A stretch of 64,000 nucleotides of DNA from Candidatus Bathyarchaeota archaeon. GTDB taxonomy: Archaea; Thermoproteota; Bathyarchaeia; 40CM-2-53-6. The stretch is from positions 320,001 to 384,000 of the forward strand of contig CAWHWX010000001.1 of assembly GCA_963833125.1 (NCBI GenBank), read 5' to 3'. The notes beneath the pieces were generated by a model. The model saw only the letters and a list, made by a program, of their open reading frames with translations, was not told the DNA's origin and made no database searches. Positions 48,564-60,063 of this stretch are shown one piece after another. Both the position numbers and the translations under genes were made by a program. Positions within the stretch are counted from its first letter, which is position 1; each line of letters begins with the position of its first letter.

Positions 48564-49574
48564 GAAGCGAGTAGGCTACATCCGCGACGAAATTAGCCAC
48601 AATTACCCCAAGAGTGAATACTACTACGATTGGAATCAGGACAGGATAATCGCTGCTGAAAATTGCCTGGTAAGCGAATTGACCTAAACCAGGCCACGCG
48701 AACAACTCCTCAACTACTAAAGTGCTAGTTAAGACCCAACCGAAAATTACAGCACTAAGGCTAGTCGCGTCAATCAAAGCATTCCGTAGAATATGCTTAC
48801 GCCTAACTTCATTTTCACTCAACCCCTTTGCCCGTGCAGTCTTCACGTGCGTTGACCATCGAACATTTAGAATGGAAGATCGAACCGCTCTGGAAATTAG
48901 CCCAAAATTCACGAAGGCAAGAGCCGCGGCTGGAAGAATCAAATGTTGAAGTCCCGACAAAAACGCGGACATGTTGAGTGCTAGAAGTGCGTCGATTAGG
49001 AAAATGCCTGTCACGGGTTGGGGTGGCGTGATAGATAATGAGTACATACCGCCTGACGGGAATATTGGGATGTAGTTTGCGAATACAAGGATGGCCACGA
49101 TTGCTGCCAGGTACATTGGCGTTGACCAAGAAACCAAGTAGGCTATTCTTGCAATTGAGTCTCCAAGTGTACTGAAGTGCATTCCCTGCAAAGTACCCTA
49201 CGGCTACTCCTACTATGACGAGGATGACGAATGAGAAGAGCACTAGCTCAAGGGTGTTCGGAAGGTAGAATCGAATTTCGGAGAGAATCGTTTGACCAGT
49301 TAGCGGGTCGATGCCGAAGTTTCCGGTGAAAAGGTCTCGCATGAAGTAATAATATTGAGAGTACAGCGGCTCATTCAAGTGGTATCTTGCTGTCACTGCA
49401 AGAATCGTGGACTCACGGGCTCTCGGGCCCGCCCACAGTCGTGCCGGGTCGGGGTTGAGTATGTGCGAGATGAAGAAAATGATGGTAACGGTTCCTATGG
49501 ATACGAGTATCGAGCCTACTATTCTTCTTCCAAGAACTGGAAGAAAATCTTTGAAGTAGACCAGAACGGGTCAT
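48517..49574 (-). CDS. Peptide ABC permease (DppB/OppB), frameshifted
   Basis: DPARLWAG, ARAKGL..KHILRNA, FAWPGLG. Confidence 0.85.
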
Positions 49575-51438
49575 CTATGAAGTGTAATGTACCGTATTGT
49601 AGAACATGAAGTATCCCATGCCTGATCCGGCAGGGTTAGGAATCATTCCGGCGACGTTGCTTCTGTTCGTCGCCATGAAGTATGGTACGTATAGCCAAAT
49701 GTTCGTGTAGTCGTAATACATGGCTCGGGTAATTTGTTGAAAGTTCTGGATTATCGTGTTTTGATCTAGTGCGGTTGCTGCTGACGTCGTCCAACCGGCT
49801 ACGGTCGAGTTGGAGAATCCGGAGAATCCGACTTGGCCAGTTGTAGTTAGAGCGGACACGTAGTCTATGCTCGCGGTGTAGTCTTCACTATAGTAGCTTA
49901 TGCCGAACGGATATGCGGTACTGTTTACATTTCCAGTTGAGGTTACCACATTCGCGTATTGCTTGAACGTAAGGGGACTGAGGGTTATCGTAACTCCTAT
50001 CGTTTGGAGTTCTGATGATATGATTTGTGCAGTTTGGGCTTCAGGTGAACTGTCAGCGTCGTAAAGAAAGTTCACTGAAGGGAACGCTTTCCCCGTAGGG
50101 TTCAGAGTTGTCCCGTTAGGTAGGGTGGACTTGTAACCTGCCTGAGCAAGTAAGGATGCGGCCTGAGTTGGGTCGAACTGGTAAGGCTGCAAGCCCTGTG
50201 TCGATTCATTGTAGTAGGGGAACCCTGGCGGAACAGGACCAATCCATTGAGTCGCCAGATCATTGTACACTGAATGGATTATAGATTTGTAATCGATCGC
50301 GTAGGAGATGGCTTCTCTGACTCGGCGGTCTTGAAATGCTGGGAATGCATATGGATCCATGTAAACGAAGATAATGCTTGCCGAGGATCCGAAAGCAGTA
50401 GGCAGGATCGTCGTGGTGATACCTGCGGCTTGCTGAAGAACGCTGTACTGAGTGGGAGGCGCTTCGATCATTTGAGCTGTGTTGGATTGTAAATCAGCGA
50501 TCATTGCGGATGCGGCTTTGTAATAGAAACTAATTGTGTCAAGGACCGCAGGCTGAATTGCATAATTGCTTTCAGATGCTGGAAGACTTGTTCCCCAGTA
50601 ATTCGGATTCTTGGTTAGCGTTACGCTCTGTCCCTGAACCCAGGACTGCAATTCGTAGAAACTGGTTCCTAAGGCGTTGGTTTCCATGTAATTATTCGGT
50701 TGCCCCGCAACTACGCCGCCGTTCGCTTCCACAACTTTCGGGTCTACAGCCATGGCCATTGGCGTAATGAGGGTCGCCGGAAACTGCGGAATACGGTGAA
50801 TTGCCGTTGTAACCATATCCTAGGTGGATAACCAATTGATTGGGTGACACAGCTTGAATCGATTGGTTTGCAAAAGTCAAGTAATTGAGATCCTTCGGTG
50901 AAGGGTTAGTGTAGTTGATGGAATTTAGTATGCTGTCGGTTATGTTGAATCCAGCGCCATTTGTTGTACCCAGATTCTGGCCAAGAATCCAAGCAGGTGC
51001 TTGATTCATGACGAGCGTTCTGTATATTGAGAACCACATTACGTACGCATTGAATGGATCTCCATTGCTGAAAGTTACTCCCGGCCTGAGCGAGAACGTG
51101 TAGGTCATCCCGTCGGATGAAACCGTCCAATTCTGAGCGAGGACACCGATGTATGTGGTGTAGCTCGTGCCGTCCGGCGCCAATAATCCCTGATAGACTT
51201 GCTCAATGATTTCCCACCCAGGAGTCGTATAGCCAACCGCCGGATCCAACGAATCAGGCTGACTTTCCTCTTCCACTACCAGCGACGTGGGCAGTTGACT
51301 AGTTGAAACACCGGTTGTTGTGCTTGGCGTCTTGATTACGGAGTAAAAGTAAACTACGCCCACGACGGCGACGATAAGGACCACAATTATTGCGATACCC
51401 TGTATCTTGCTAATGCCCGATTTCTGCAATCGATTCAC
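49575..51438 (-). CDS. Peptide ABC substrate-binding protein (family 5), frameshift near 50785
   Basis: SLDPA, YTFSLRPGVTFSNG, VREAISYAID. Confidence 0.9.
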
Positions 51439-51588
51439 CCAATGAGTAATCGACTAGTTGCGAGTAGAAGATACGTCGAAGCACGCGATTTTAACATTTG
51501 GCATTTGACTCCCACGAATCTACTCAGATGGCTTCTACTTCCTTCAAGCTTCATATGGAGCGGATATGTACCTCAATTGGCCTCATCA

Positions 51589-52176
51589 ATGAACGCGAAC
51601 TATGCACAGCAATGCCCCAGCTGCGACAACACCTCAATGCTCACCAGCCAAACTCAATATGAAGTAGACCACTTTGGGGCAGTATTGCTAAGCGTAGCCG
51701 TATGCCAAAGGTGTGGCTACAAACATTCAGACGTCATCACGCTCACTAACCGCGAAGCCACTGCCCTAACTGCCAAGATAAATTCTCTCGACGATCTGAA
51801 TATGCGGGTAATCAAGTCCGGAACTGCAACGATCAGCATCCCGGAATTCGGAGCGACAATCACCCCCGGTCCATACAGCGAAGGTTACATCTCAAACGTA
51901 GAAGGCCTCCTCGGGAAAATAGAAGATGCCCTAACATTCATGCTCAGTACGGCGAAGGGAAAACGCTTGAAAAAAGGAGAGACAATGTTGAAGAAAATGC
52001 GAATGGCACGAGATTCGAAACCCCGATTCACCCTTATCATCAAGGACCCCCTCGGAAATAGCGCGATCGTATCTACAAACCCGCGGAAAGTTAGAAAACG
52101 CAAGTTGACAAATCGAGAACTACGAAACGTTAAGTTTGGCCAATATGCAATTTTGGAAAATGTAACTCAAAACTGA
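51589..52176 (+). CDS. ZPR1 zinc finger protein
   Basis: CPSC..CQRCGYK, GYISNVEG, DPLGNS; exact start uncertain. Confidence 0.9.
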   Translation: MNANYAQQCPSCDNTSMLTSQTQYEVDHFGAVLLSVAVCQRCGYKHSDVITLTNREATALTAKINSLDDLNMRVIKSGTATISIPEFGATITPGPYSEGYISNVEGLLGKIEDALTFMLSTAKGKRLKKGETMLKKMRMARDSKPRFTLIIKDPLGNSAIVSTNPRKVRKRKLTNRELRNVKFGQYAILENVTQN

Positions 52177-52208
52177 AACTTCGGGTACAAAACTGAGGCG
52201 CAACCATC

Positions 52209-53235
52209 TTGCAGGAACAGCCGATCGGATGGAGCAATGGGATAATAGTGAATACTGGCTCGTCGCGCCTTCTCTTCGATCCAACTTTAGGTAGGCGTTT
52301 AGGTGAGGATTGGAATGTTTTCATCACTCACGCACATTCAGACCATACCTATGGTTTTGGAACTTCCGCGAGAAAACATTCCACGCCGGAGACCTTGCGC
52401 ATCTACGAATCACTTTCAAAACGTACAGTCAAGAACGATCAGACCATAAAGATCGGCGAGAGAATGCGATTTGATGATACTGAAGTCAAGGTCCTCGATG
52501 CTGGTCACATGCTTGGTTCCTGCCAGTTCCAGCTCATCGCTCCCGAATTTACTGCGCTCTATACAGGCGACATCAACTGCGTCGATACACTGACTACCAA
52601 GGCGGCAGATGCTGAGCCATGCGATTTTCTGATTATAGAAGCTACGTATGGTCATCCGTCATATGTGTTCCCAAAAAGAGACACCATATACGCCGACATC
52701 ATTCGATGGACAATGACGGAGATAAATGACGACAAGTTACCAACTTTCCAAGTTTACTCATCAGGTAAACCGCAAGACATCGTCCGCCTCTTCAACGTCT
52801 ACACCAAAATCCCAGTCGTATGCGCACCCGGTATAGCGGCAGCAAACCTTGTCCACAATGAAAACGGCGTCCAACTCGAATACCTAGATTCTTCGACCCC
52901 TGACGGAAAGCACGCGCTGAAATCGAGGGGATGCATCTACGTTACGACTACTCGAGGAAATCAGGTGCCCCATAATGCTTCAAGAGCAGTTGCTACAGGT
53001 TGGGCTCTACGAGAGGCTTTTCGCAGTTTTACAGCCTTTCCCCTGAGTAGCCACGCTGACTATCAATCAGCTCATGCAATTTATCGCGGCCGTCAACCCG
53101 AAAGCGGTGTTCATCTTCACAGGATACATAGATCTGTTGTCGGCCCAGATAGAAAGGAAGCTAGGCATCAAAGCTGGGCCACTGCCTGTACTCGCGCAGA
53201 CGAAGTTAGCCGACTTTACGCGAAAGGCTACTTGA
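52209..53235 (+). CDS. MBL/beta-CASP-type nuclease, frameshift near 53062
   Basis: THAHSDH, AGHMLGS, YTGD, EATYG, LSSHAD. Confidence 0.85.
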
Positions 53236-53407
53236 AAGTCACATACATGAAGAGACTTACGGCAACAAGGCCGATTGCTCCCATAATTACAACCTCGGGC
53301 CTTACCTTTACTCCCGGAGTCTCCTCTTCAAAGAACCGAAGTAAGCCGGCACTGGCAGCGGGCATTGGCGATTCTCGTTTGCGTCTTTTCTCACGTGCGG
53401 TTGACAT
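53228..53407 (-). CDS. secG: Preprotein translocase subunit Sec61beta (59 aa, not in ORF track)
   Basis: MSTAREKRRKRESPMPAASAGLLRFFEEETPGVKVRPEVVI + TM; AGL.RFF and K..P motifs. Confidence 0.9.
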   Translation of the reverse strand: MSTAREKRRKRESPMPAASAGLLRFFEEETPGVKVRPEVVIMGAIGLVAVSLFMYVTFK

Positions 53408-53484
53408 TATTTACTAGGTCCCTGCTGGTTGGTTTTGGACGACGCTCAATTAAACTTTCATTTAGTGCATTAGGAGACGGATTG

Positions 53485-54845
53485 TTATCGGATTTTGATG
53501 TATTCGTATGCTTTCCTTGCGCTTTCGAAGCAATAGTGGACGTCCTGGAAATTCTTTCGCAATTCTGCAACGTCCTGTTTGACTTTCTTCGGGTCTTCCT
53601 TGTTGATTACTACACTCTTGATGAGCCTTGCGATCTCACTCATTTCATTCTTCCCCATCCCTATTCGGGTTATTTCCGAGGTTCCTATGCGTATCCCGCC
53701 TGGATTCTGATAATGCCGCCCGGCTTTAATGTCACCAGGAAGTAGCTGACGATTCACGATGATGTTAGCCGCTTCGAGTGCCCTCTCCGCATCTCCTCCA
53801 AGGGTGTACTTGGTAACGTCTACGGCGATTTGATGTGACTCCGTGAAGCCCTTACTCTCCCCAAGAAGAGAGAACCCCGTCTCATGTAATGCCTGCCCCA
53901 GAGCTTTCGGCGTTATCAATAACTTGCACAACGTACTGCTTCCCGAACTCCAACATCTCCGCAAAAGCAACGGCCTTCCCAGCCAAATTATGCAGGTGGT
54001 GGTTACTCGTATTCGATGGGAATGTCGCTTTCTTAATTTGATCACCATATTTATCGAACGACAACACAGCGCCCCCCTGAGGCCCGAAGAGCGTCTTATG
54101 AGTACTCAAACATACGGCGTCAACTCCTTCTCTCAGCGGATCCTGAAAACGCCCACCCGCAATGAGACCACCGACGTGAGCGGCGTCGTATGCTATTTTG
54201 GCGCCAACCGAATGCAAAGCGTCCGCAAGTTCGCGGATTGGTTGTGGGAATAGGAATAGGCTGCAACCAAACATCGCGAGTTTCGGCGGCTTATGCTCTT
54301 CCTCAGCCATCTTCCGTATTTTCTCCTTCGTCTTGTCAACGTCAATATTCATCTCCTCTTTGTCGAACGCGAAGTACTCCACGTCAAGGCCGTGTACGGA
54401 ACCGGCGGTTCCGTTGAACTCCTTTCTTCCCGTAGAAATGTGCCCACCGTTCGGGATGGCCATGGCTAACATGCGGTCACCTGGATTTGTGAAAGTAGTG
54501 TAGACGACTAGGTTGGCACAAACTCCAGAGACGGGTCGAACGTCAACGAATTCGGCTTTGAACAGATCCTTTGCTAGGTCGATGCAGATTCGTTCAACTT
54601 GATCTATGTATACGCATCCGGCGTATACTCGTTCCCCGACCCATCCTTGCGTAGACTCGACAGGATGTCTAGGTCTATTCCGCGTAACGGTTGCCGAAGT
54701 CGGAAACGATTGCTTCGCGCACCGCCGGGCTGGGAACGTTTTCGGATGCGATCAATGGTATCGATTCGGAGAACCACTTATGGTGCTGCTCCAGTAGTTG
54801 GAGCACCTTGTTGCGGGACTCCTTTGGCTGTGGTAACTCAAACAC
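53485..54845 (-). CDS. glyA: Serine hydroxymethyltransferase, interrupted by a 31-nt insertion and one single-base indel near 53908
   Basis: LIASEN, NRYAE|GWVGERVYAGC, DAAH, STHKTLFGPQG, GIRIGT. Confidence 0.92.
54647..54677 (-). other. Candidate BHB-type mRNA intron in glyA
   Basis: TAGACCTAGACATCCTGTCGAGTCTACGCAA; removal restores frame and the YAEG motif; folds into a BHB-like structure. Confidence 0.7.
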
Positions 54846-54932
54846 CCCACCCAAGGTGGTTCCCTAGGTCTCTAAATGCCTTTTGCCCTGAGAGTCCTCT
54901 GTAACGAAGTCTCTTGGAGTTGCTAGGTCCCA

Positions 54933-55295
54933 TTAACCTATGCTTAGGTTCCAGAAGTAACCTAGAATGAGGCTGACAATTAGAATCAGCATCACAGAAC
55001 CTGTAACGAAAACGAACTTGCGGTCATGATTCGCGGCAAAAACTAGAATGGAAAGGAAAACGCGGGTAATTGGGGTCGCGATCAAAAGTATTGTTCCAAC
55101 CATCAGAATTGCTGAAGCACGCATGGCAATCAGTTGCTGAACAAAATCATTCAGGCTAGTGTATCTTACCAACGTCGCCTGCATTGGATTGGGGTTCTGT
55201 AAGAGGAATAGGATTAATCCGAATATGTAAACGACGGAGCTTGAAATCATTCCTACAACCAAAACGACGTACATTGCCCTATTCAAGTCAACCAT
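54933..55295 (-). CDS. DUF1634-like membrane protein
   Basis: LLIATPITRV motif, 3 TM, follows TauE/SafE gene. Confidence 0.8.
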   Translation of the reverse strand: MVDLNRAMYVVLVVGMISSSVVYIFGLILFLLQNPNPMQATLVRYTSLNDFVQQLIAMRASAILMVGTILLIATPITRVFLSILVFAANHDRKFVFVTGSVMLILIVSLILGYFWNLSIG

Positions 55296-56196
55296 TGTGG
55301 CTCACCCCAAGATTGGAATCTTGATTCCAAACGACACGAGCGCCTGCGCGAACATGGTATACGCGAGGTATGCAACTAAGAGGCCGAACGCGACTTTCAA
55401 CAGCGTAACTGCGAAGCCTGTTCATAATTGCAGTGCCAAGCGTCGCGCCTAGCGTAGTTCCAAGCGCGATCGGTGCAAGGACGTACACGTTCACCAATCC
55501 GGTAACGAAGAAGAGGAGCGCCCCAACTGCGGCTGTTACACCTATCATGAATTTGCTTGTAGCGATCGCGGCTTTCAACGGGACATTCATGGTCAAGTTC
55601 ATCGCTGCCACTTTGATGATTCCGCCTCCGACGCCCAGCAGCCCTGCGGTGATTCCGGCGAAGCTTGAGATTACCGCTCCCTTGACGGTGCCATTGACAA
55701 CGTAGTCTACCTCCTTCTTCTCCGAACCGTCAAAGTAGGAACCTGTGAGTCCCAAGTATTTCGATATGCGATCTTGCTTTGCGCTGGTAAACTCATTCTT
55801 GGCGATTCGCTTTTCTTCCATCGATCTTGATTTAAGATTGGAGACCGCAACGTAAGACAGCAATACGCCGAAGATCATGAATAGTACCCAACTTTGAAGA
55901 AGCAGCGCGACAACGCTACCTACGAGAGCTCCGGCGGTGGTGGCTACTTCAAGATACATGGCGAGCTTGATGTTTGTGATTTTCTGCTCTAGATATGAAG
56001 ATCCACCGGCATTCGAGGTAGCGATCACTGAAACGAGACTGATCGCTATTGCCTGATGGATTGGCACACCCATAAACACGGTTAGAAATGGAACAATGAT
56101 GGCTCCGCCCCCTATCCCGAAAAGACCGCCGAAGAAACCAGCAAATATTGCTGTCAAGAAACAGATCGCCAGAAAACCGAGAGTAATTTCCATCAA
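55288..56196 (-). CDS. TauE/SafE family sulfite exporter-like protein (C-terminal frameshift)
   Basis: GIGGGAIIVP, GVGGGIIKV, ATSKFMIGVTA. Confidence 0.88.
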   Translation of the reverse strand: MMEITLGFLAICFLTAIFAGFFGGLFGIGGGAIIVPFLTVFMGVPIHQAIAISLVSVIATSNAGGSSYLEQKITNIKLAMYLEVATTAGALVGSVVALLLQSWVLFMIFGVLLSYVAVSNLKSRSMEEKRIAKNEFTSAKQDRISKYLGLTGSYFDGSEKKEVDYVVNGTVKGAVISSFAGITAGLLGVGGGIIKVAAMNLTMNVPLKAAIATSKFMIGVTAAVGALLFFVTGLVNVYVLAPIALGTTLGATLGTAIMNRLRSYAVESRVRPLSCIPRVYHVRAGARVVWNQDSNLGVSHNG

Positions 56197-56264
56197 AGCA
56201 CATGCACCATCGCAGATAGCGAGTTAGGCCCCTGTGTGAGTGCCGCTATCTGCCTTTCTACCAA

Positions 56265-56930
56265 TTATTGAGAGCGCCTCATCTCTCTTAGAAAACGGCC
56301 CGTCTTGTTACGCATGTGATGATGCATGAGCCACCTGAAGTCTTTCGGTTCGTCCACATCAAAACTGATTCCGATTGATCTTATCACTCGGCGGGAGACG
56401 CCTTGCCTATCCGCAAGAGCCAGATGCCTTTGGAAACTATCTATTCCGAAGACATTGCGAATTACTCCAGGCGGATGCATCAGCAGAGCATTTGTCCCGG
56501 TTCCATCTTTCGAGGGTGTAAGCGCCACGGAATAACCGGCGGCCTGATCGAGAAAGTTGGCGATCTCACGGGGAGTGATCAATGGAATGTCGGCGGGCAT
56601 TATTAGTGCGGCTGAGGCGCCTCGGTGTTGCGATTCATTGATGGCCAACCGGACTCCCTTATTCAAGCCACGCCTCTTGCCCTCCCAAAGCCAACTGGCA
56701 CCATGGGACCGTGCGATTTTCCCGACTGCGTAATCGGCGCTCACAACCGTTACGCCATCAAGCCTCTTGACCTTTCTCAGGACTTCGAGAACATCTACTA
56801 ACATTGCAACGGAAAGGTGGGCTCTTTGGGCAGGGTTCAGTACGGTTGCTAGTCTAGTCTTTGACAGCTTCAGGATATTTACGGGAACTACAGCGTGGAC
56901 TTTGGCCGGTCTTCGCCGCTTTTTTCTCAA
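56265..56930 (-). CDS. cofC: 2-phospho-L-lactate/PEP guanylyltransferase
   Basis: KTRL, ADIPL, GTNAL, FG.DSF.RH, DVDEP.D. Confidence 0.9.
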   Translation of the reverse strand: MRKKRRRPAKVHAVVPVNILKLSKTRLATVLNPAQRAHLSVAMLVDVLEVLRKVKRLDGVTVVSADYAVGKIARSHGASWLWEGKRRGLNKGVRLAINESQHRGASAALIMPADIPLITPREIANFLDQAAGYSVALTPSKDGTGTNALLMHPPGVIRNVFGIDSFQRHLALADRQGVSRRVIRSIGISFDVDEPKDFRWLMHHHMRNKTGRFLREMRRSQ

Positions 56931-57853
56931 CGCTTGAATTCACTTGTCGCTGTTCGTGCTAAGTGAATTTTGTCTGTCATGGTTTTCATGAGGGTCTGAG
57001 TCACGATCGGTTTGATGCCGAGTGCTCTTATCTGAGGCGCAAGTTCGACGTCAACTTTGTCGATGATTAGTACATCTAGGAAATCTTTGTAGCATGTTGC
57101 TACGCCCACCGCGCTTGCTTCTATGCCTGAGGCTTTCATCAATTTGTCAGCTGGACCCTTTACAGTCTTACCGCCCACGATTGGACTGATGCCTAAGACC
57201 TGCGCCTTTGTTTTCTTAAGCGCTGCACGGATACTCTTTACGGCTAAAATTGCTCCTATGCTCACGATAGGATTGCTCGGACAAATTATGATCCCGCTTG
57301 CTTCGTTTATTGATTCAATTACATGCGGTCCAGCCCTTGCGGAATCCGACCCTTTGAAGAGAACGCTCTTGACCTTTGGCCTCGTCTGATGCCTAACCAT
57401 GTATTCTTGGAAGTGCATGCGACTCCGGCCGGACAAAACGTAGGTCTGAAGCAGATCGTCAGTTGAAGGAAGAAGCGTCACATCGAGTCCCAAACGCGAA
57501 ACTATACTCGCCGTAGCGGCTGACAACTTCTTACCTTCACGCATTTGTTCAGTGCGGTAGAGGTGCGTTGCCAGATCGCGATCCCCGATATTGAACCATG
57601 GTCTGTAACCATACCTCTGAAGCAGTTTTTGGCAATAGAAGGTGTCTCCTTTGAATCCCCAACCTCTTACCGGATCGACCAAACCGGCGAGGGTGTAAGT
57701 GACAATGTCTAAGTCGGGAGACACATGAAGGCCGTAGAACTCTATGTCGTCTCCAACATTGCCAATTATCGTGATACGTCTTTGCGGCTCGACTCGAATG
57801 AGACCCTCAAGGAATCTCGCAGCTCCAACCCCGCCGGCTAAAGCGACGATCAA
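56927..57853 (-). CDS. cofD: 2-phospho-L-lactate transferase
   Basis: LAGGVGAARF, SPDLD, GDRDLATH, HFQEY, PSNPIVSI. Confidence 0.93.
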   Translation of the reverse strand: MIVALAGGVGAARFLEGLIRVEPQRRITIIGNVGDDIEFYGLHVSPDLDIVTYTLAGLVDPVRGWGFKGDTFYCQKLLQRYGYRPWFNIGDRDLATHLYRTEQMREGKKLSAATASIVSRLGLDVTLLPSTDDLLQTYVLSGRSRMHFQEYMVRHQTRPKVKSVLFKGSDSARAGPHVIESINEASGIIICPSNPIVSIGAILAVKSIRAALKKTKAQVLGISPIVGGKTVKGPADKLMKASGIEASAVGVATCYKDFLDVLIIDKVDVELAPQIRALGIKPIVTQTLMKTMTDKIHLARTATSEFKR

Positions 57854-57882
57854 GGGCTGAACCAGTCGGGAACAGCTATCTG

Positions 57883-58572
57883 CTAAGCCTTGCTAAGCCT
57901 GCTTATCCAGGGATGACCTGAAGCGATTTGGGGAACCTTCGAGTAGATCGACGTGAAAACTGCGTAGGGTACCGCGACCGAGAAGACTGCGTGCAGAGCA
58001 TTGAAGATGCTCGTAAAGAGCAACATGGCCGAAAGAATCTGCCATGGTCCTGCGAATTGCATGTGGAGCGTACCTTGAAGGGTTTGTTGGCTAAAACCCA
58101 GATAGTCTATACCGAAAATTACTGGGCCAATATACGTGAAGACAAAGTAGTTGATTACTAGCAGAATCAAGACTCGAGTCATGATTGCAAACGCAAGCAT
58201 TGTGCCAAGAGCTAAGGATATTCGATTATGATTCACCGCTAACCGTCGATAGGTTATGCTTCCTAACCACAAACCCAAGAGTGTTGAAAGTACCGAAGCG
58301 AACTTTACGGCAGGCCCTAACGGCGTATCGGTTCCTGTGGCAGTGAGAAACATCCAATGAACAGTAGCGGTTACAAGCGCGGGGATCGGACCGAAGATAA
58401 AGAAAGCTAAGACCGAGAATAGCTCGGCCGGATCAAACTTGAGGAATGGCAGTATTGGAAATGATGGTTGAATGCGAGCAGGAAGTATAACGGTAGTCAG
58501 GGCTGCAAGCGCACCCATCACTGCAGCGCCCGTTAAGCTCACGCTTCGCCTCGCAAACAGACTTTCCGTCAT
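57883..58572 (-). CDS. ECF transporter S component (RibU-like)
   Basis: PILPFLKFDPAE..FGP motif, multi-TM. Confidence 0.8.
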   Translation of the reverse strand: MTESLFARRSVSLTGAAVMGALAALTTVILPARIQPSFPILPFLKFDPAELFSVLAFFIFGPIPALVTATVHWMFLTATGTDTPLGPAVKFASVLSTLLGLWLGSITYRRLAVNHNRISLALGTMLAFAIMTRVLILLVINYFVFTYIGPVIFGIDYLGFSQQTLQGTLHMQFAGPWQILSAMLLFTSIFNALHAVFSVAVPYAVFTSIYSKVPQIASGHPWISRLSKA

Positions 58573-58674
58573 CTAAAGCACCAACGCTGTGCACAGAAAG
58601 TCACAACTACTTAACTTTTATTTTATGACAATCTCATGAAAACAACATGATATTATGTTTAAGTAGTCATTGTA

Positions 58675-58971
58675 TTATCTTCGTTTGTTGAATCCTTTAG
58701 CTTTTGTTATGAAGTCGCGTAACTGTTCAACGTTTAGGGGAGAGAGAACCCTGGATCTACCGACCTCGTAAACTTGGAGGAGGCCTGCCCTTCTGAGTAT
58801 TTCGACGTGCCTATACACTCCTCCGTAATCCATTTTCAAATTACTAGCTACAGCAGTAATGTGTAATGGCTTCTTGCTGTCCATGAGCATTAACAGAATA
58901 CGGAGCCTAACACTATTCCCTAACGCCGAGAACATTGCCGAAGCTAATTGGAGTTCTTCGGCAGCGGACAT
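58675..58971 (-). CDS. ArsR-family HTH regulator
   Basis: FSALGNSVRLRIL..VYRHVEILRRAGL. Confidence 0.85.
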   Translation of the reverse strand: MSAAEELQLASAMFSALGNSVRLRILLMLMDSKKPLHITAVASNLKMDYGGVYRHVEILRRAGLLQVYEVGRSRVLSPLNVEQLRDFITKAKGFNKRR

Positions 58972-58988
58972 TGATGATCAAGCCCTTC

Positions 58989-59180
58989 CTATGGCAGACA
59001 GTTATCACGGTTACTGAGAGTTAACCTTGTCCAGCGCCATTCCTTTCCTGCGGCAAACTCAGCCATGTGCTCGTTAGAGCAGAAATGGTACATTTTCATG
59101 TGCCCTTCTTCATCGATCGCGAAGGACAGTGAGGCCATGAGGTCGGATACCTTCCCACAGACATTGCACATGACTTTCAT
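58989..59180 (-). CDS. Small TRASH/YHS-like metal-binding protein (3' end uncertain)
   Basis: CNVCGK..YHFCSNEH. Confidence 0.65.
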   Translation of the reverse strand: MKVMCNVCGKVSDLMASLSFAIDEEGHMKMYHFCSNEHMAEFAAGKEWRWTRLTLSNRDNCLP

Positions 59181-59199
59181 TCTCTTGACCTAGGATCCT

Positions 59200-59964
59200 C
59201 TAGCTAACGTAGGGTAGTTCCCTTTCGCCGCCCTTACGGCCTTCGCGGGGAAAGGAATGCGAGAGATCCTTGGCCTTTTGCACAACCTCCGCGTTCTCTT
59301 TGGCTTGTTTCTCAAGCGCCGTGAGATCTATGGAGATGTTCAACATTCGCGAGGCGAGCTGTAGGGCTGCTTTCGCTGCGTTAGCATCTAGTGATAAGTA
59401 ACCCGGGGTTTCGGCTAGGAGGCAGATGGCTGGAATTTTCTTTTGTTTGGCGAGCCCGAATATGAGGCCGTTCGTTCCCGTTATTGCGCCTCCGGCTAGT
59501 TTCACTGCGCCCAAAGATTCGAGCTCCTTCACCGATTCGACATCTGTTGCACCAGCATATACCTTCGGCTGCTCTGCAAACCTGTCCGTAGCCATTCCAC
59601 CCATAGTGATCACTTTTTTCGTAGCGAATTTCGCTGCTAAGTCTAAGACCACTTCCGCGAGCTCGTATTGCCCTTCGGGTGAATAGGGCTGCTCGTTAGC
59701 TGTGAAGAGAAGTAGATCGGATCCTCCGTCCTTGTTCTTCCAGTAGTGGAATTCGCCTTTCATCATACCCACGACTCCATCCTCACTCAACCAAACTTTC
59801 GGGGAGAACATTGGAGAGAAGACTTCCGCGAACAGTTGAGCTTTCAGCTCTTTCTGGAGGTGGTTGACTGCTAACCATGCGACTGAGCCGATGCCTGGAA
59901 GACCACATACCATTACGGGGTCTCGGAGTTCGGGTTGTTGCGAGTAAAGCACTTCTGTTTGCAT
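59200..59964 (-). CDS. PAC2-family proteasome assembly chaperone
   Basis: GLPGIGSV, GAITGTNG, CLLAETPGY..D. Confidence 0.9.
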   Translation of the reverse strand: MQTEVLYSQQPELRDPVMVCGLPGIGSVAWLAVNHLQKELKAQLFAEVFSPMFSPKVWLSEDGVVGMMKGEFHYWKNKDGGSDLLLFTANEQPYSPEGQYELAEVVLDLAAKFATKKVITMGGMATDRFAEQPKVYAGATDVESVKELESLGAVKLAGGAITGTNGLIFGLAKQKKIPAICLLAETPGYLSLDANAAKAALQLASRMLNISIDLTALEKQAKENAEVVQKAKDLSHSFPREGRKGGERELPYVS

Positions 59965-60063
59965 TGTGATTCACGATGGATCATGAGTATTGGTATGGAA
60001 TCTATGTGAGTAGCCGGTAATTAGCATGCTTGTGAATAAGACCGGATTAGCGAGTGTTGGCGG

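Follow-up and report, generated by a model that had tools for sequence, protein, structure and literature searches.

A probable tRNA-type bulge-helix-bulge intron next to the catalytic codon of glyA in Bathyarchaeia

Introduction

Removal of an intron from an mRNA does not always involve the spliceosome: in HAC1/XBP1, a short intron is excised independently of it by an endonuclease and an RNA ligase, and the reading frame is changed. In archaea, an intron in the pre-mRNA of crenarchaeal cbf5 was reportedly described by Watanabe in 2002 and by Yoshinari in 2006. Here, we analyse glyA, the gene for serine hydroxymethyltransferase (SHMT), in a stretch of 64,000 nucleotides (hereafter the window) from a Candidatus Bathyarchaeota archaeon (assembly GCA_963833125.1, contig CAWHWX010000001.1, positions 320,001 to 384,000), in which 31 nt interrupt the gene within its active-site motif. 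A first-pass annotation, made from the letters of the window and their open reading frames (ORFs), had interpreted these 31 nt as an intron with a motif of the bulge-helix-bulge (BHB) type, and the comparative tests described below support this interpretation.

The accessible part of Yokobori 2009 (PMC2738675) gives a length of 16-44 bp for the crenarchaeal cbf5 intron, describes its BHB motifs as mostly unconventional and places it in Desulfurococcales and Sulfolobales only. According to the available text of another study, archaeal tRNA introns at non-canonical positions carry relaxed HBh' motifs that are cut by EndA of the (alpha-beta)2 or epsilon2 type (PMC5829648), and the unconventional splicing of HAC1/XBP1 mRNA in eukaryotes is assigned to IRE1 and RtcB in the accessible text of a 2026 review (PMC13149111). 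Within that text the review handles archaeal splicing under tRNA only; a 2025 paper on the archaeal splicing endonuclease cites, in its accessible part, the cbf5 work only when it comes to mRNA introns (PMC12397907), and mRNA introns go unmentioned in the available part of a 2026 preprint on Asgard tRNA introns. In the literature searched, which comprised openly accessible text without subscription journals and supplements, cbf5 is the only archaeal protein gene named with a tRNA-type intron, and no report of an intron in archaeal glyA or aEF-2 was found. For glyA, this agrees with the first-pass annotation, which knew of no report of an intron in this gene.

Results

A 31-nt insert follows the catalytic glutamate codon of glyA

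On the minus strand of the window, glyA reads ...AAC CGT TAC GCG GAA / 31 nt / GGA TGG GTC GGG GAA CGA GTA TAC GCC GGA TGC (Table 1). Codons 1 and 3 of the insert are TAG in the frame of exon 1, and the length of 31 nt also shifts the frame. In the NCBIfam SHMT model NF000586, exon 1 occupies profile positions 2-46 and the piece 3' of the insert positions 47-284, while Pfam PF00464 matches the gene in three pieces (5-51, 50-311 and 309-399). Once the insert and a 1-nt frameshift in exon 2 are read through, the SHMT profile is matched over its full length, and solved SHMT chains match too. The profile runs on across the insert (46/47) without loss of a residue, which makes the 31 nt a purely additional stretch. 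An alternative start codon, TTG at 54852-54854, would give an exon 1 of 59 codons.

Exon 1 was aligned to the solved SHMT chains 4uqv/4bhd up to residue 52/51, and a gapless alignment of an intron-less orthologue (L020) places the glutamate before the insert at residue 53 of 2dkj and 1kkj and at residue 57 of 1dfo. Glu53 of SHMT is a proposed acid-base catalyst in the accessible text of PMC11323337. Judged by this alignment, the predicted glyA intron adjoins a catalytic codon, as the intron of cbf5 does. The boundaries of the insert, its two in-frame TAGs, the frame shift, its clean removal and its location inside the active-site motif had all been proposed in the first-pass annotation; sequence, profiles and structural alignment bear them out, and the observation of a 31-nt insert in glyA is confirmed.

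A search of 54300-55000 against Rfam gave no match at E values up to 1. No second copy of the 31 nt was detected in the genome to which the window belongs (G000), where blastn-short gave only chance matches of 11-15 nt elsewhere; the insert is therefore neither a repeat nor a transposon scar. The insert measures 30 nt in the four closest relatives (G016 and L120-L122); compared to them, the hairpin loop of the window holds an additional base at ~54664, which may be real or may be one of the single-base insertions of the assembly.

Table 1. Features of the glyA locus in the window (the caret marks the predicted cut).
Feature	Position	Strand	Remarks
glyA exon 1	54678..54845	-	56 codons from GTG at 54843-54845; ends ...NRYAE, last Glu catalytic
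Probable bulge-helix-bulge intron, 31 nt	54647..54677	-	same-site inserts in relatives
glyA exon 2	53485..54646	-	386 codons in relatives; stop codon 53485-53487; broken here by one extra base near 53910
Single-base insertion, exon 2 frameshift	53909..53911	-	GCC versus GC in G016
Helix H, 5' strand (exon, GCGG)	54680..54683	-	third base is the Ala wobble base; covariation in 60 variants
5' bulge AA^T	54677..54679	-	predicted cut after second base, between 54678 and 54677
Intron hairpin h'	54653..54676	-	AGAC (54673-54676) / GTCT (54653-54656), encloses inner hairpin GACA-TCC-TGTC; minimum-free-energy fold
Helix H, 3' strand (intron, ACGC)	54649..54652	-	3 pairs plus G.A in the window
3' bulge AA^G	54646..54648	-	predicted cut after second base, between 54647 and 54646

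Inserts at the same codon boundary share a covarying motif

Inserts of 25-36 nt were found at exactly this codon boundary in 61 distinct orthologue variants. To score base pairs, the geometry was set only by the distance from the splice sites: helix H joins the four-base stretches that precede the final two bases of exon 1 and of the intron, and hairpin h' joins intron bases +2 to +5 to the stretch lying immediately 5' of the intron strand of helix H. Scoring eight pairs per variant in 60 distinct variants yielded 97.3% standard pairs, compared to 33.5-51.7% when the 3' partner was slid by 1-3 nt. The helix H positions were paired in 59, 60, 60 and 55 variants, and the first four h' pairs, which include several pair types, in 60, 60, 58 and 55. 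The wobble base of the alanine codon in exon 1 was never unpaired with respect to its intron partner, the pair being G-C in 56, C-G in 3 and A-U in 1 of the 60 variants. In a MAFFT alignment of 20 sequences (A4), the same pair was distributed 15/3/1, helix H was paired to 96.1% and h' to 91.5%, and seven pairs had changed on both sides, with both-sided changes seen in all five h' pairs tested. The covariation score of this alignment was reached by 0/500 shuffles.

The bulges are A-rich and nearly fixed (among the 60 variants, the 5' bulge is AA^T 52 times and AA^A 6 times, with AG^A and AG^T seen once each), and most variants outside the sub-clade of the window have CCGT as the intron strand of helix H, which makes four pairs. 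The minimum-free-energy (MFE) fold of 54627-54697 contains AGAC/GTCT, the inner hairpin GACA-TCC-TGTC, GCG/CGC and CCGUU/GAUGG as they had been drawn in the first-pass annotation. That annotation had also noted that cuts placed behind base 2 of the two bulges yield the product required in the window, and such cuts would give an in-frame product in every variant. It had further suggested aligning glyA from relatives in search of same-site inserts with covarying stems, and both the inserts and the covariation were found.

Distribution of the insert

The 61 variants come from Bathyarchaeia, one metagenome-assembled genome (MAG) labelled Nitrososphaerota and three Asgard-type genomes. Among relatives, the insert was present in 16/29 orthologue loci, namely 13/15 of the same genus and 3/14 of other families of the order. 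It was seen in 14/75 resolved loci of the genome collection (5/80 were unresolved by the search pattern), in 57/80 metagenome contigs and in 3/26 resolved loci among relatives of an Asgard-labelled genome. A quick maximum-likelihood tree was calculated from 85 glyA rows, 19 of them with the insert, after 9 identical duplicates had been dropped. The predicted NRYAE/G intron requires at least 6 changes on this tree, the starred branches force all 6, and 0/500 label shuffles gave a number as low; as the tree is unrooted, gains are not separable from losses. The rows with the insert comprise most of the genus of the window (with one intron-less sister row), L048 in a neighbouring clade, two other families of the order, the Nitrososphaerota-labelled L114 and the near-identical Asgard-labelled L090 and L091. 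One insert-bearing archaeal glyA contig (L040) is filed as a bacterium (Candidatus Acidoferrum sp.) and is probably mis-binned.

Both exons are under purifying selection

Substitution rates were determined for 14 insert-bearing orthologues that had been picked for the absence of other breaks and whose exon 2 spans 385-388 codons. The ratio of nonsynonymous to synonymous rates (dN/dS) was 0.04-0.07 in every pair of these genes with unsaturated dS. For exon 1 alone (last 50 codons), dN within the genus was 0.009-0.09 against a dS of 0.06-2.3. Judged by these rates, both exons are under strong purifying selection and the gene is alive. An in-frame stop is present in 59/60 variants and the insert lengths fall into all three classes modulo 3 (24/22/14), so the insert cannot be translated.

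The genome holds a second intact gene of the SHMT family (G000:C32:50585-51730, locus L001:1453-2769). Its product of 438 aa is 40% identical to the glyA product of the window and has an insertion of ~20 residues at the place of the canonical YAEG motif. Matches resembling it (40-46%) occur in 15 relatives, both with and without the glyA intron, and the gene is best described as a conserved paralogue, not a replacement. The first-pass annotation had named a second intact glyA next to a decaying copy as the finding that would speak against splicing: a second gene exists, but its identity of 40% and its presence in relatives with and without the intron do not fit a decaying copy in the window.

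The genome encodes candidate splicing enzymes

Two ORFs of the EndA family (PF01974) were identified in the genome, one of 185 aa on contig C34 and one of 190 aa on contig C14. The former matches chain 3p1z_B at 7.8e-40, with further matches to 3ajv_B, 2cv8_A and 2zyz_B ('tRNA-splicing endonuclease'), chains which we take to be catalytic subunits of crenarchaeal heterotetrameric EndA. The latter is divergent, and its matches to the NCBIfam models for 'subunit beta' are sub-threshold. The endonuclease is thus probably a two-subunit (alpha-beta)2 EndA. RtcB is encoded as well, and the host has, besides this RNA ligase, an EndA-family endonuclease that by its probable architecture belongs to the type accepting relaxed motifs. 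ARAGORN in intron mode called introns in 29/35 tRNAs, several of them of implausible length, and this output was left unused as evidence.

Further predicted mRNA introns in cbf5, aEF-2 and Asgard-labelled glyA

The cbf5 gene of the same genome contains a 19-nt insert (C19:108179-108197, locus L118:1480-1498) inside the catalytic Asp codon of GGTL-D-PKVTG. Its geometry is the same as that of the glyA insert, with a CCCT/GGGG helix and bulges AG^A and CA^A. This site is interrupted by 17-21 nt in 28/30 loci across the order (2 unresolved), with exon and intron bases covarying. In aEF-2, a 27-nt insert (C7:79794-79820, locus L329:1294-1320) lies between ...QIR-N and MGIIAHVDHGKTT, just before the P-loop, and displays a perfect TCCG/CGGA helix with bulges AA^A and AC^A. 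Of the aEF-2 loci resolved in the order, 27/28 carry it; the 26 different sequences among them measure 25-44 nt, and each has 4/4 central pairs (TCCG/CGGR) and an in-frame stop. In Asgard-labelled genomes, glyA has two extra inserts of the same geometry (L090/L208, L091/L209 and G045/L210), one of 28 nt after ...ASEN and one of 29 nt after ...AGK, located at ~1383-1410 and ~2169-2197 of L090/L208. Three other Asgard-labelled or Asgard-related genomes (L216-L218) have a BHB-like glyA insert of 41 nt after ...GWPGE, ~45 nt downstream of the SEN motif.

The genome was screened by tblastn with ORFs of two intron-poor outgroups, a Nitrososphaera contig of 1.169 Mb (847 ORFs with matches, 45 raw candidates) and 1.2 of the 1.497 Mb of a Bathyarchaeota chromosome (595 ORFs with matches, 37 raw candidates). 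Both screens recovered glyA, cbf5 and aEF-2 and nothing else convincing among the 503 and 484 ORFs, respectively, whose best match in the genome reached at least 80 bits; such screens are blind to introns that the outgroup has too and to short out-of-frame first exons. The rejected candidates comprised the tail of a MoaD/ThiS-like gene together with the gene after it (C36:5813-5884), the boundary of two genes (C19:103868-103940) and a 1-nt frameshift (C16:431127), and the remaining ones were frameshift regions, shadow ORFs and stretches upstream of start codons. A genome-wide scan combining the BHB motif with ORF fusion gave 25,735 candidates, of which 1,719 passed stricter filters. The control glyA fell to the filter for upstream closure of the exon 2 frame, and the printed output for the 1,719 showed neither control; the scan was dropped as too noisy because the assembly is full of frameshifts. 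By these screens mRNA introns appear to be few in this genome, and glyA is one of three found. Of the search for other BHB inserts that the first-pass annotation had recommended, cbf5 and aEF-2 are the yield, and the outgroup screens added no further convincing case.

The frameshift in exon 2 and the quality of the assembly

The assembly of the genome has 39 contigs and 3.07 Mb with a completeness of 87.8% and a contamination of 7%. Between 45478 and 64000, many isolated single bases are added in the window compared to the collinear region of G016 (49187, 50784, 53064, 53910, 55401 and 60320 are examples), and they break frames or extend them artificially. Over 18.5 kb aligned to G016 at 85% nucleotide identity, 7/10 isolated gaps of a length other than a multiple of three correspond to a single extra base in the window, and the frame of G016 is clearly longer at 49187 (350 vs 251 codons), 50784 (616 vs 414) and 53910 (395 vs 289). 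Additional frameshifts are likewise present in cbf5 and aEF-2 of the same genome, while the closest relative, G016, has an intact glyA exon 2 of 386 codons. The isolated extra bases of the window are probably assembly errors, and the one near 53910 most likely is such an error, because essential genes could not be broken at such a rate in an organism.

A heptamer enriched in the window

As a separate observation, the window contains 12 copies of the heptamer GACCTAG where 5.2 are expected, and 0/100 shuffles reached 12. Five copies are found in or close to glyA (53414-54929, minus strand): the predicted intron and exon 2 hold one each, another two lie upstream and the last one downstream.

Discussion

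We consider it very likely that the 31 nt in glyA are a real, spliced intron of the BHB (tRNA) type in an mRNA. The reading proposed in the first-pass annotation is favoured by the covarying inserts at the same site, by purifying selection, by the presence of EndA and RtcB and by a cbf5 intron of identical geometry. The sequence analysis shows the structure and how it covaries, that the site is conserved, that both exons are under selection and that the enzymes are encoded, whereas cleavage, ligation and the subunit architecture are what we infer. In the glyA pre-mRNA, the exon bases GCGG would bind four bases close to the intron's 3' end. Beside this central helix the intron would fold its own hairpin, so that a bulge of 3 nt would be left on either strand, the two being separated by about one 4-bp helix. 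The tRNA-splicing endonuclease would cut after the second base of each bulge, RtcB would join the exons to give ...Y-A-E/G-W-V..., and the intron would probably leave as a small circle. Only the spliced mRNA would yield active SHMT, because the unspliced one stops at a TAG directly after the codon of the catalytic glutamate. A regulatory role of the intron is speculation.

Several observations weigh against a spliced intron or narrow the form it can take. The folding energy of 54627-54697 is ordinary (z = -0.37; 57/200 shuffles fold as well) and is therefore no sign of more than chance, which leaves it to the comparison among variants to supply that sign. The 61 variants come from related genomes and their counts overstate independence. 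The sub-clade of the window (window, G016 and L120-L122) has three helix H pairs plus a G.A at the fourth position, and the 5' bulge appears in the MFE fold as GAA and not as AAU, both of which indicate a relaxed motif. The exon-exon helix CCGTT/GATGG is 83% paired on alignment A4, mostly via invariant coding bases; consistent covariation of this outer helix was not detected there, with the pair at columns 6-53 unpaired in 13/19 rows. Of the pairings drawn in the first-pass annotation, the exon-exon pairing hence lacks support from covariation, and for the same reason the glyA motif fits the relaxed HBh' type and not the strict hBHBh' type. An intron-less contig near-identical to an intron-bearing one was sought among public contigs and not found, the best being 92.5% identical over 120 nt, and RNA sequencing runs were sought for window positions 50001-60000, for which none were listed. 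Finally, the glyA of the window as assembled would stay broken after splicing if the extra base near 53910 were real.

This last point is the core of a view that we regard as improbable, according to which the intron is real in the lineage but the glyA of this particular genome is dead, with its function covered by the C32 paralogue or by uptake. The frameshift is indeed present in the assembly and the paralogue of the SHMT family is intact, but single extra bases account for 7/10 of the non-3n gaps against G016, three of them with a clearly longer frame in that genome; cbf5 and aEF-2 of the same genome are frameshifted likewise, which makes an assembly error the simpler explanation, and the closest relative has all 386 codons of exon 2 intact. 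Far less credit still is due to the notion that glyA is a decaying pseudogene in which a transposon footprint or small duplication has left an insertion scar and which the second SHMT gene has replaced. It would account for the stops and the frame shift of the insert and could draw on the intact paralogue, yet it is already contradicted by the results on selection and covariation: dN/dS stays at 0.04-0.07 in both exons across species with saturated synonymous sites, and the insert sits at exactly one site in 61 variants with compensatory changes. Moreover, the genome has no other copy of the 31 nt, and the paralogue, only 40% identical, is also present where the orthologue lacks the insert.

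Translation might instead deal with the insert at the ribosome, either by bypassing as in phage T4 gene 60 or by making exon 2 separately as part of a split protein, but we think it very unlikely that it does so. In 53/61 variants a stop codon directly follows the last codon of exon 1 and is itself followed by the hairpin, an arrangement like that of a take-off site. A landing codon, however, must match the take-off codon GAA or GAG, and the last three insert bases fit in 0/60 variants, since T, C or A occupies the third position from the end of the insert. Covariation furthermore links the 3' end of the insert with a base of the exon, and a hop needs no such link. As for a split protein, a start codon in the frame of exon 2 exists inside the insert in 2/61 variants only. 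A spliced BHB intron remains the reading that we prefer.

A broader proposal is possible, though we think it less likely than not: the short BHB introns of protein genes may form a class of archaeal elements, with Asgard-type lineages included, that is mobile and has been gained repeatedly, and may not be a curiosity of cbf5. Its basis is that glyA is interrupted at at least 4 codons in at least 3 phylum-level groups, with at least 6 gains or losses at the NRYAE/G site, and the predicted introns in glyA, cbf5 and aEF-2 of this genome all lie at or beside codons of catalytic or nucleotide-binding motifs. If the proposal is true, such introns could home to conserved sequence or could be inserted by reverse splicing through EndA and RtcB and then be fixed, and core enzymes would need the tRNA-splicing machinery for their expression. 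With repeated gains at conserved codons, the question of how BHB introns spread would become directly testable.

With glyA and aEF-2, the kind of intron would be enlarged from one gene to several and extended into Bathyarchaeia and Asgard-type genomes, a core enzyme and a translation factor being affected across a whole order of abundant uncultured archaea. Gene callers will call such essential genes pseudogenes or N-terminally truncated, which distorts metabolic reconstructions and estimates of MAG completeness. The 61 glyA and 26 aEF-2 variants would also serve as a natural mutational set for the recognition of RNA outside tRNA by a broad-specificity endonuclease.

The described systems resemble the predicted glyA intron to different degrees. 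HAC1/XBP1 shares with it a short mRNA intron, an endonuclease acting together with an RNA ligase in place of the spliceosome and a change of frame, but the endonuclease and the recognition motif are others, and stress regulation belongs to the eukaryotic case. The tRNA introns at non-canonical positions, as far as the accessible text describes them, have the same motif geometry and presumably the same enzymes (EndA and RtcB), whereas the host RNA of the glyA intron is an mRNA that offers no tRNA body for recognition and whose exon half of the motif is constrained by coding. Closest is the cbf5 intron. In the available descriptions it is, like that of glyA, short and ORF-less and resides in a protein gene (16-44 bp in cbf5, 25-36 nt in glyA); in both, the BHB is unconventional or relaxed and the cuts are predicted to fall between the second and third bulge residues, the location is in each case a catalytic residue's codon (at Asp in cbf5, directly after Glu in glyA), both are distributed patchily, implying gains or losses, and both are tied to a hetero-oligomeric endonuclease. 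For cbf5, cDNA and cleavage data exist according to those descriptions, whereas the glyA intron is known here from DNA comparisons. The lineages also differ, the glyA intron being found in Bathyarchaeia, a Nitrososphaerota-labelled MAG and Asgard-type genomes and in a gene of one-carbon metabolism. As predicted from its sequence features, the glyA intron works like the cbf5 intron but differs from it in host gene and position.

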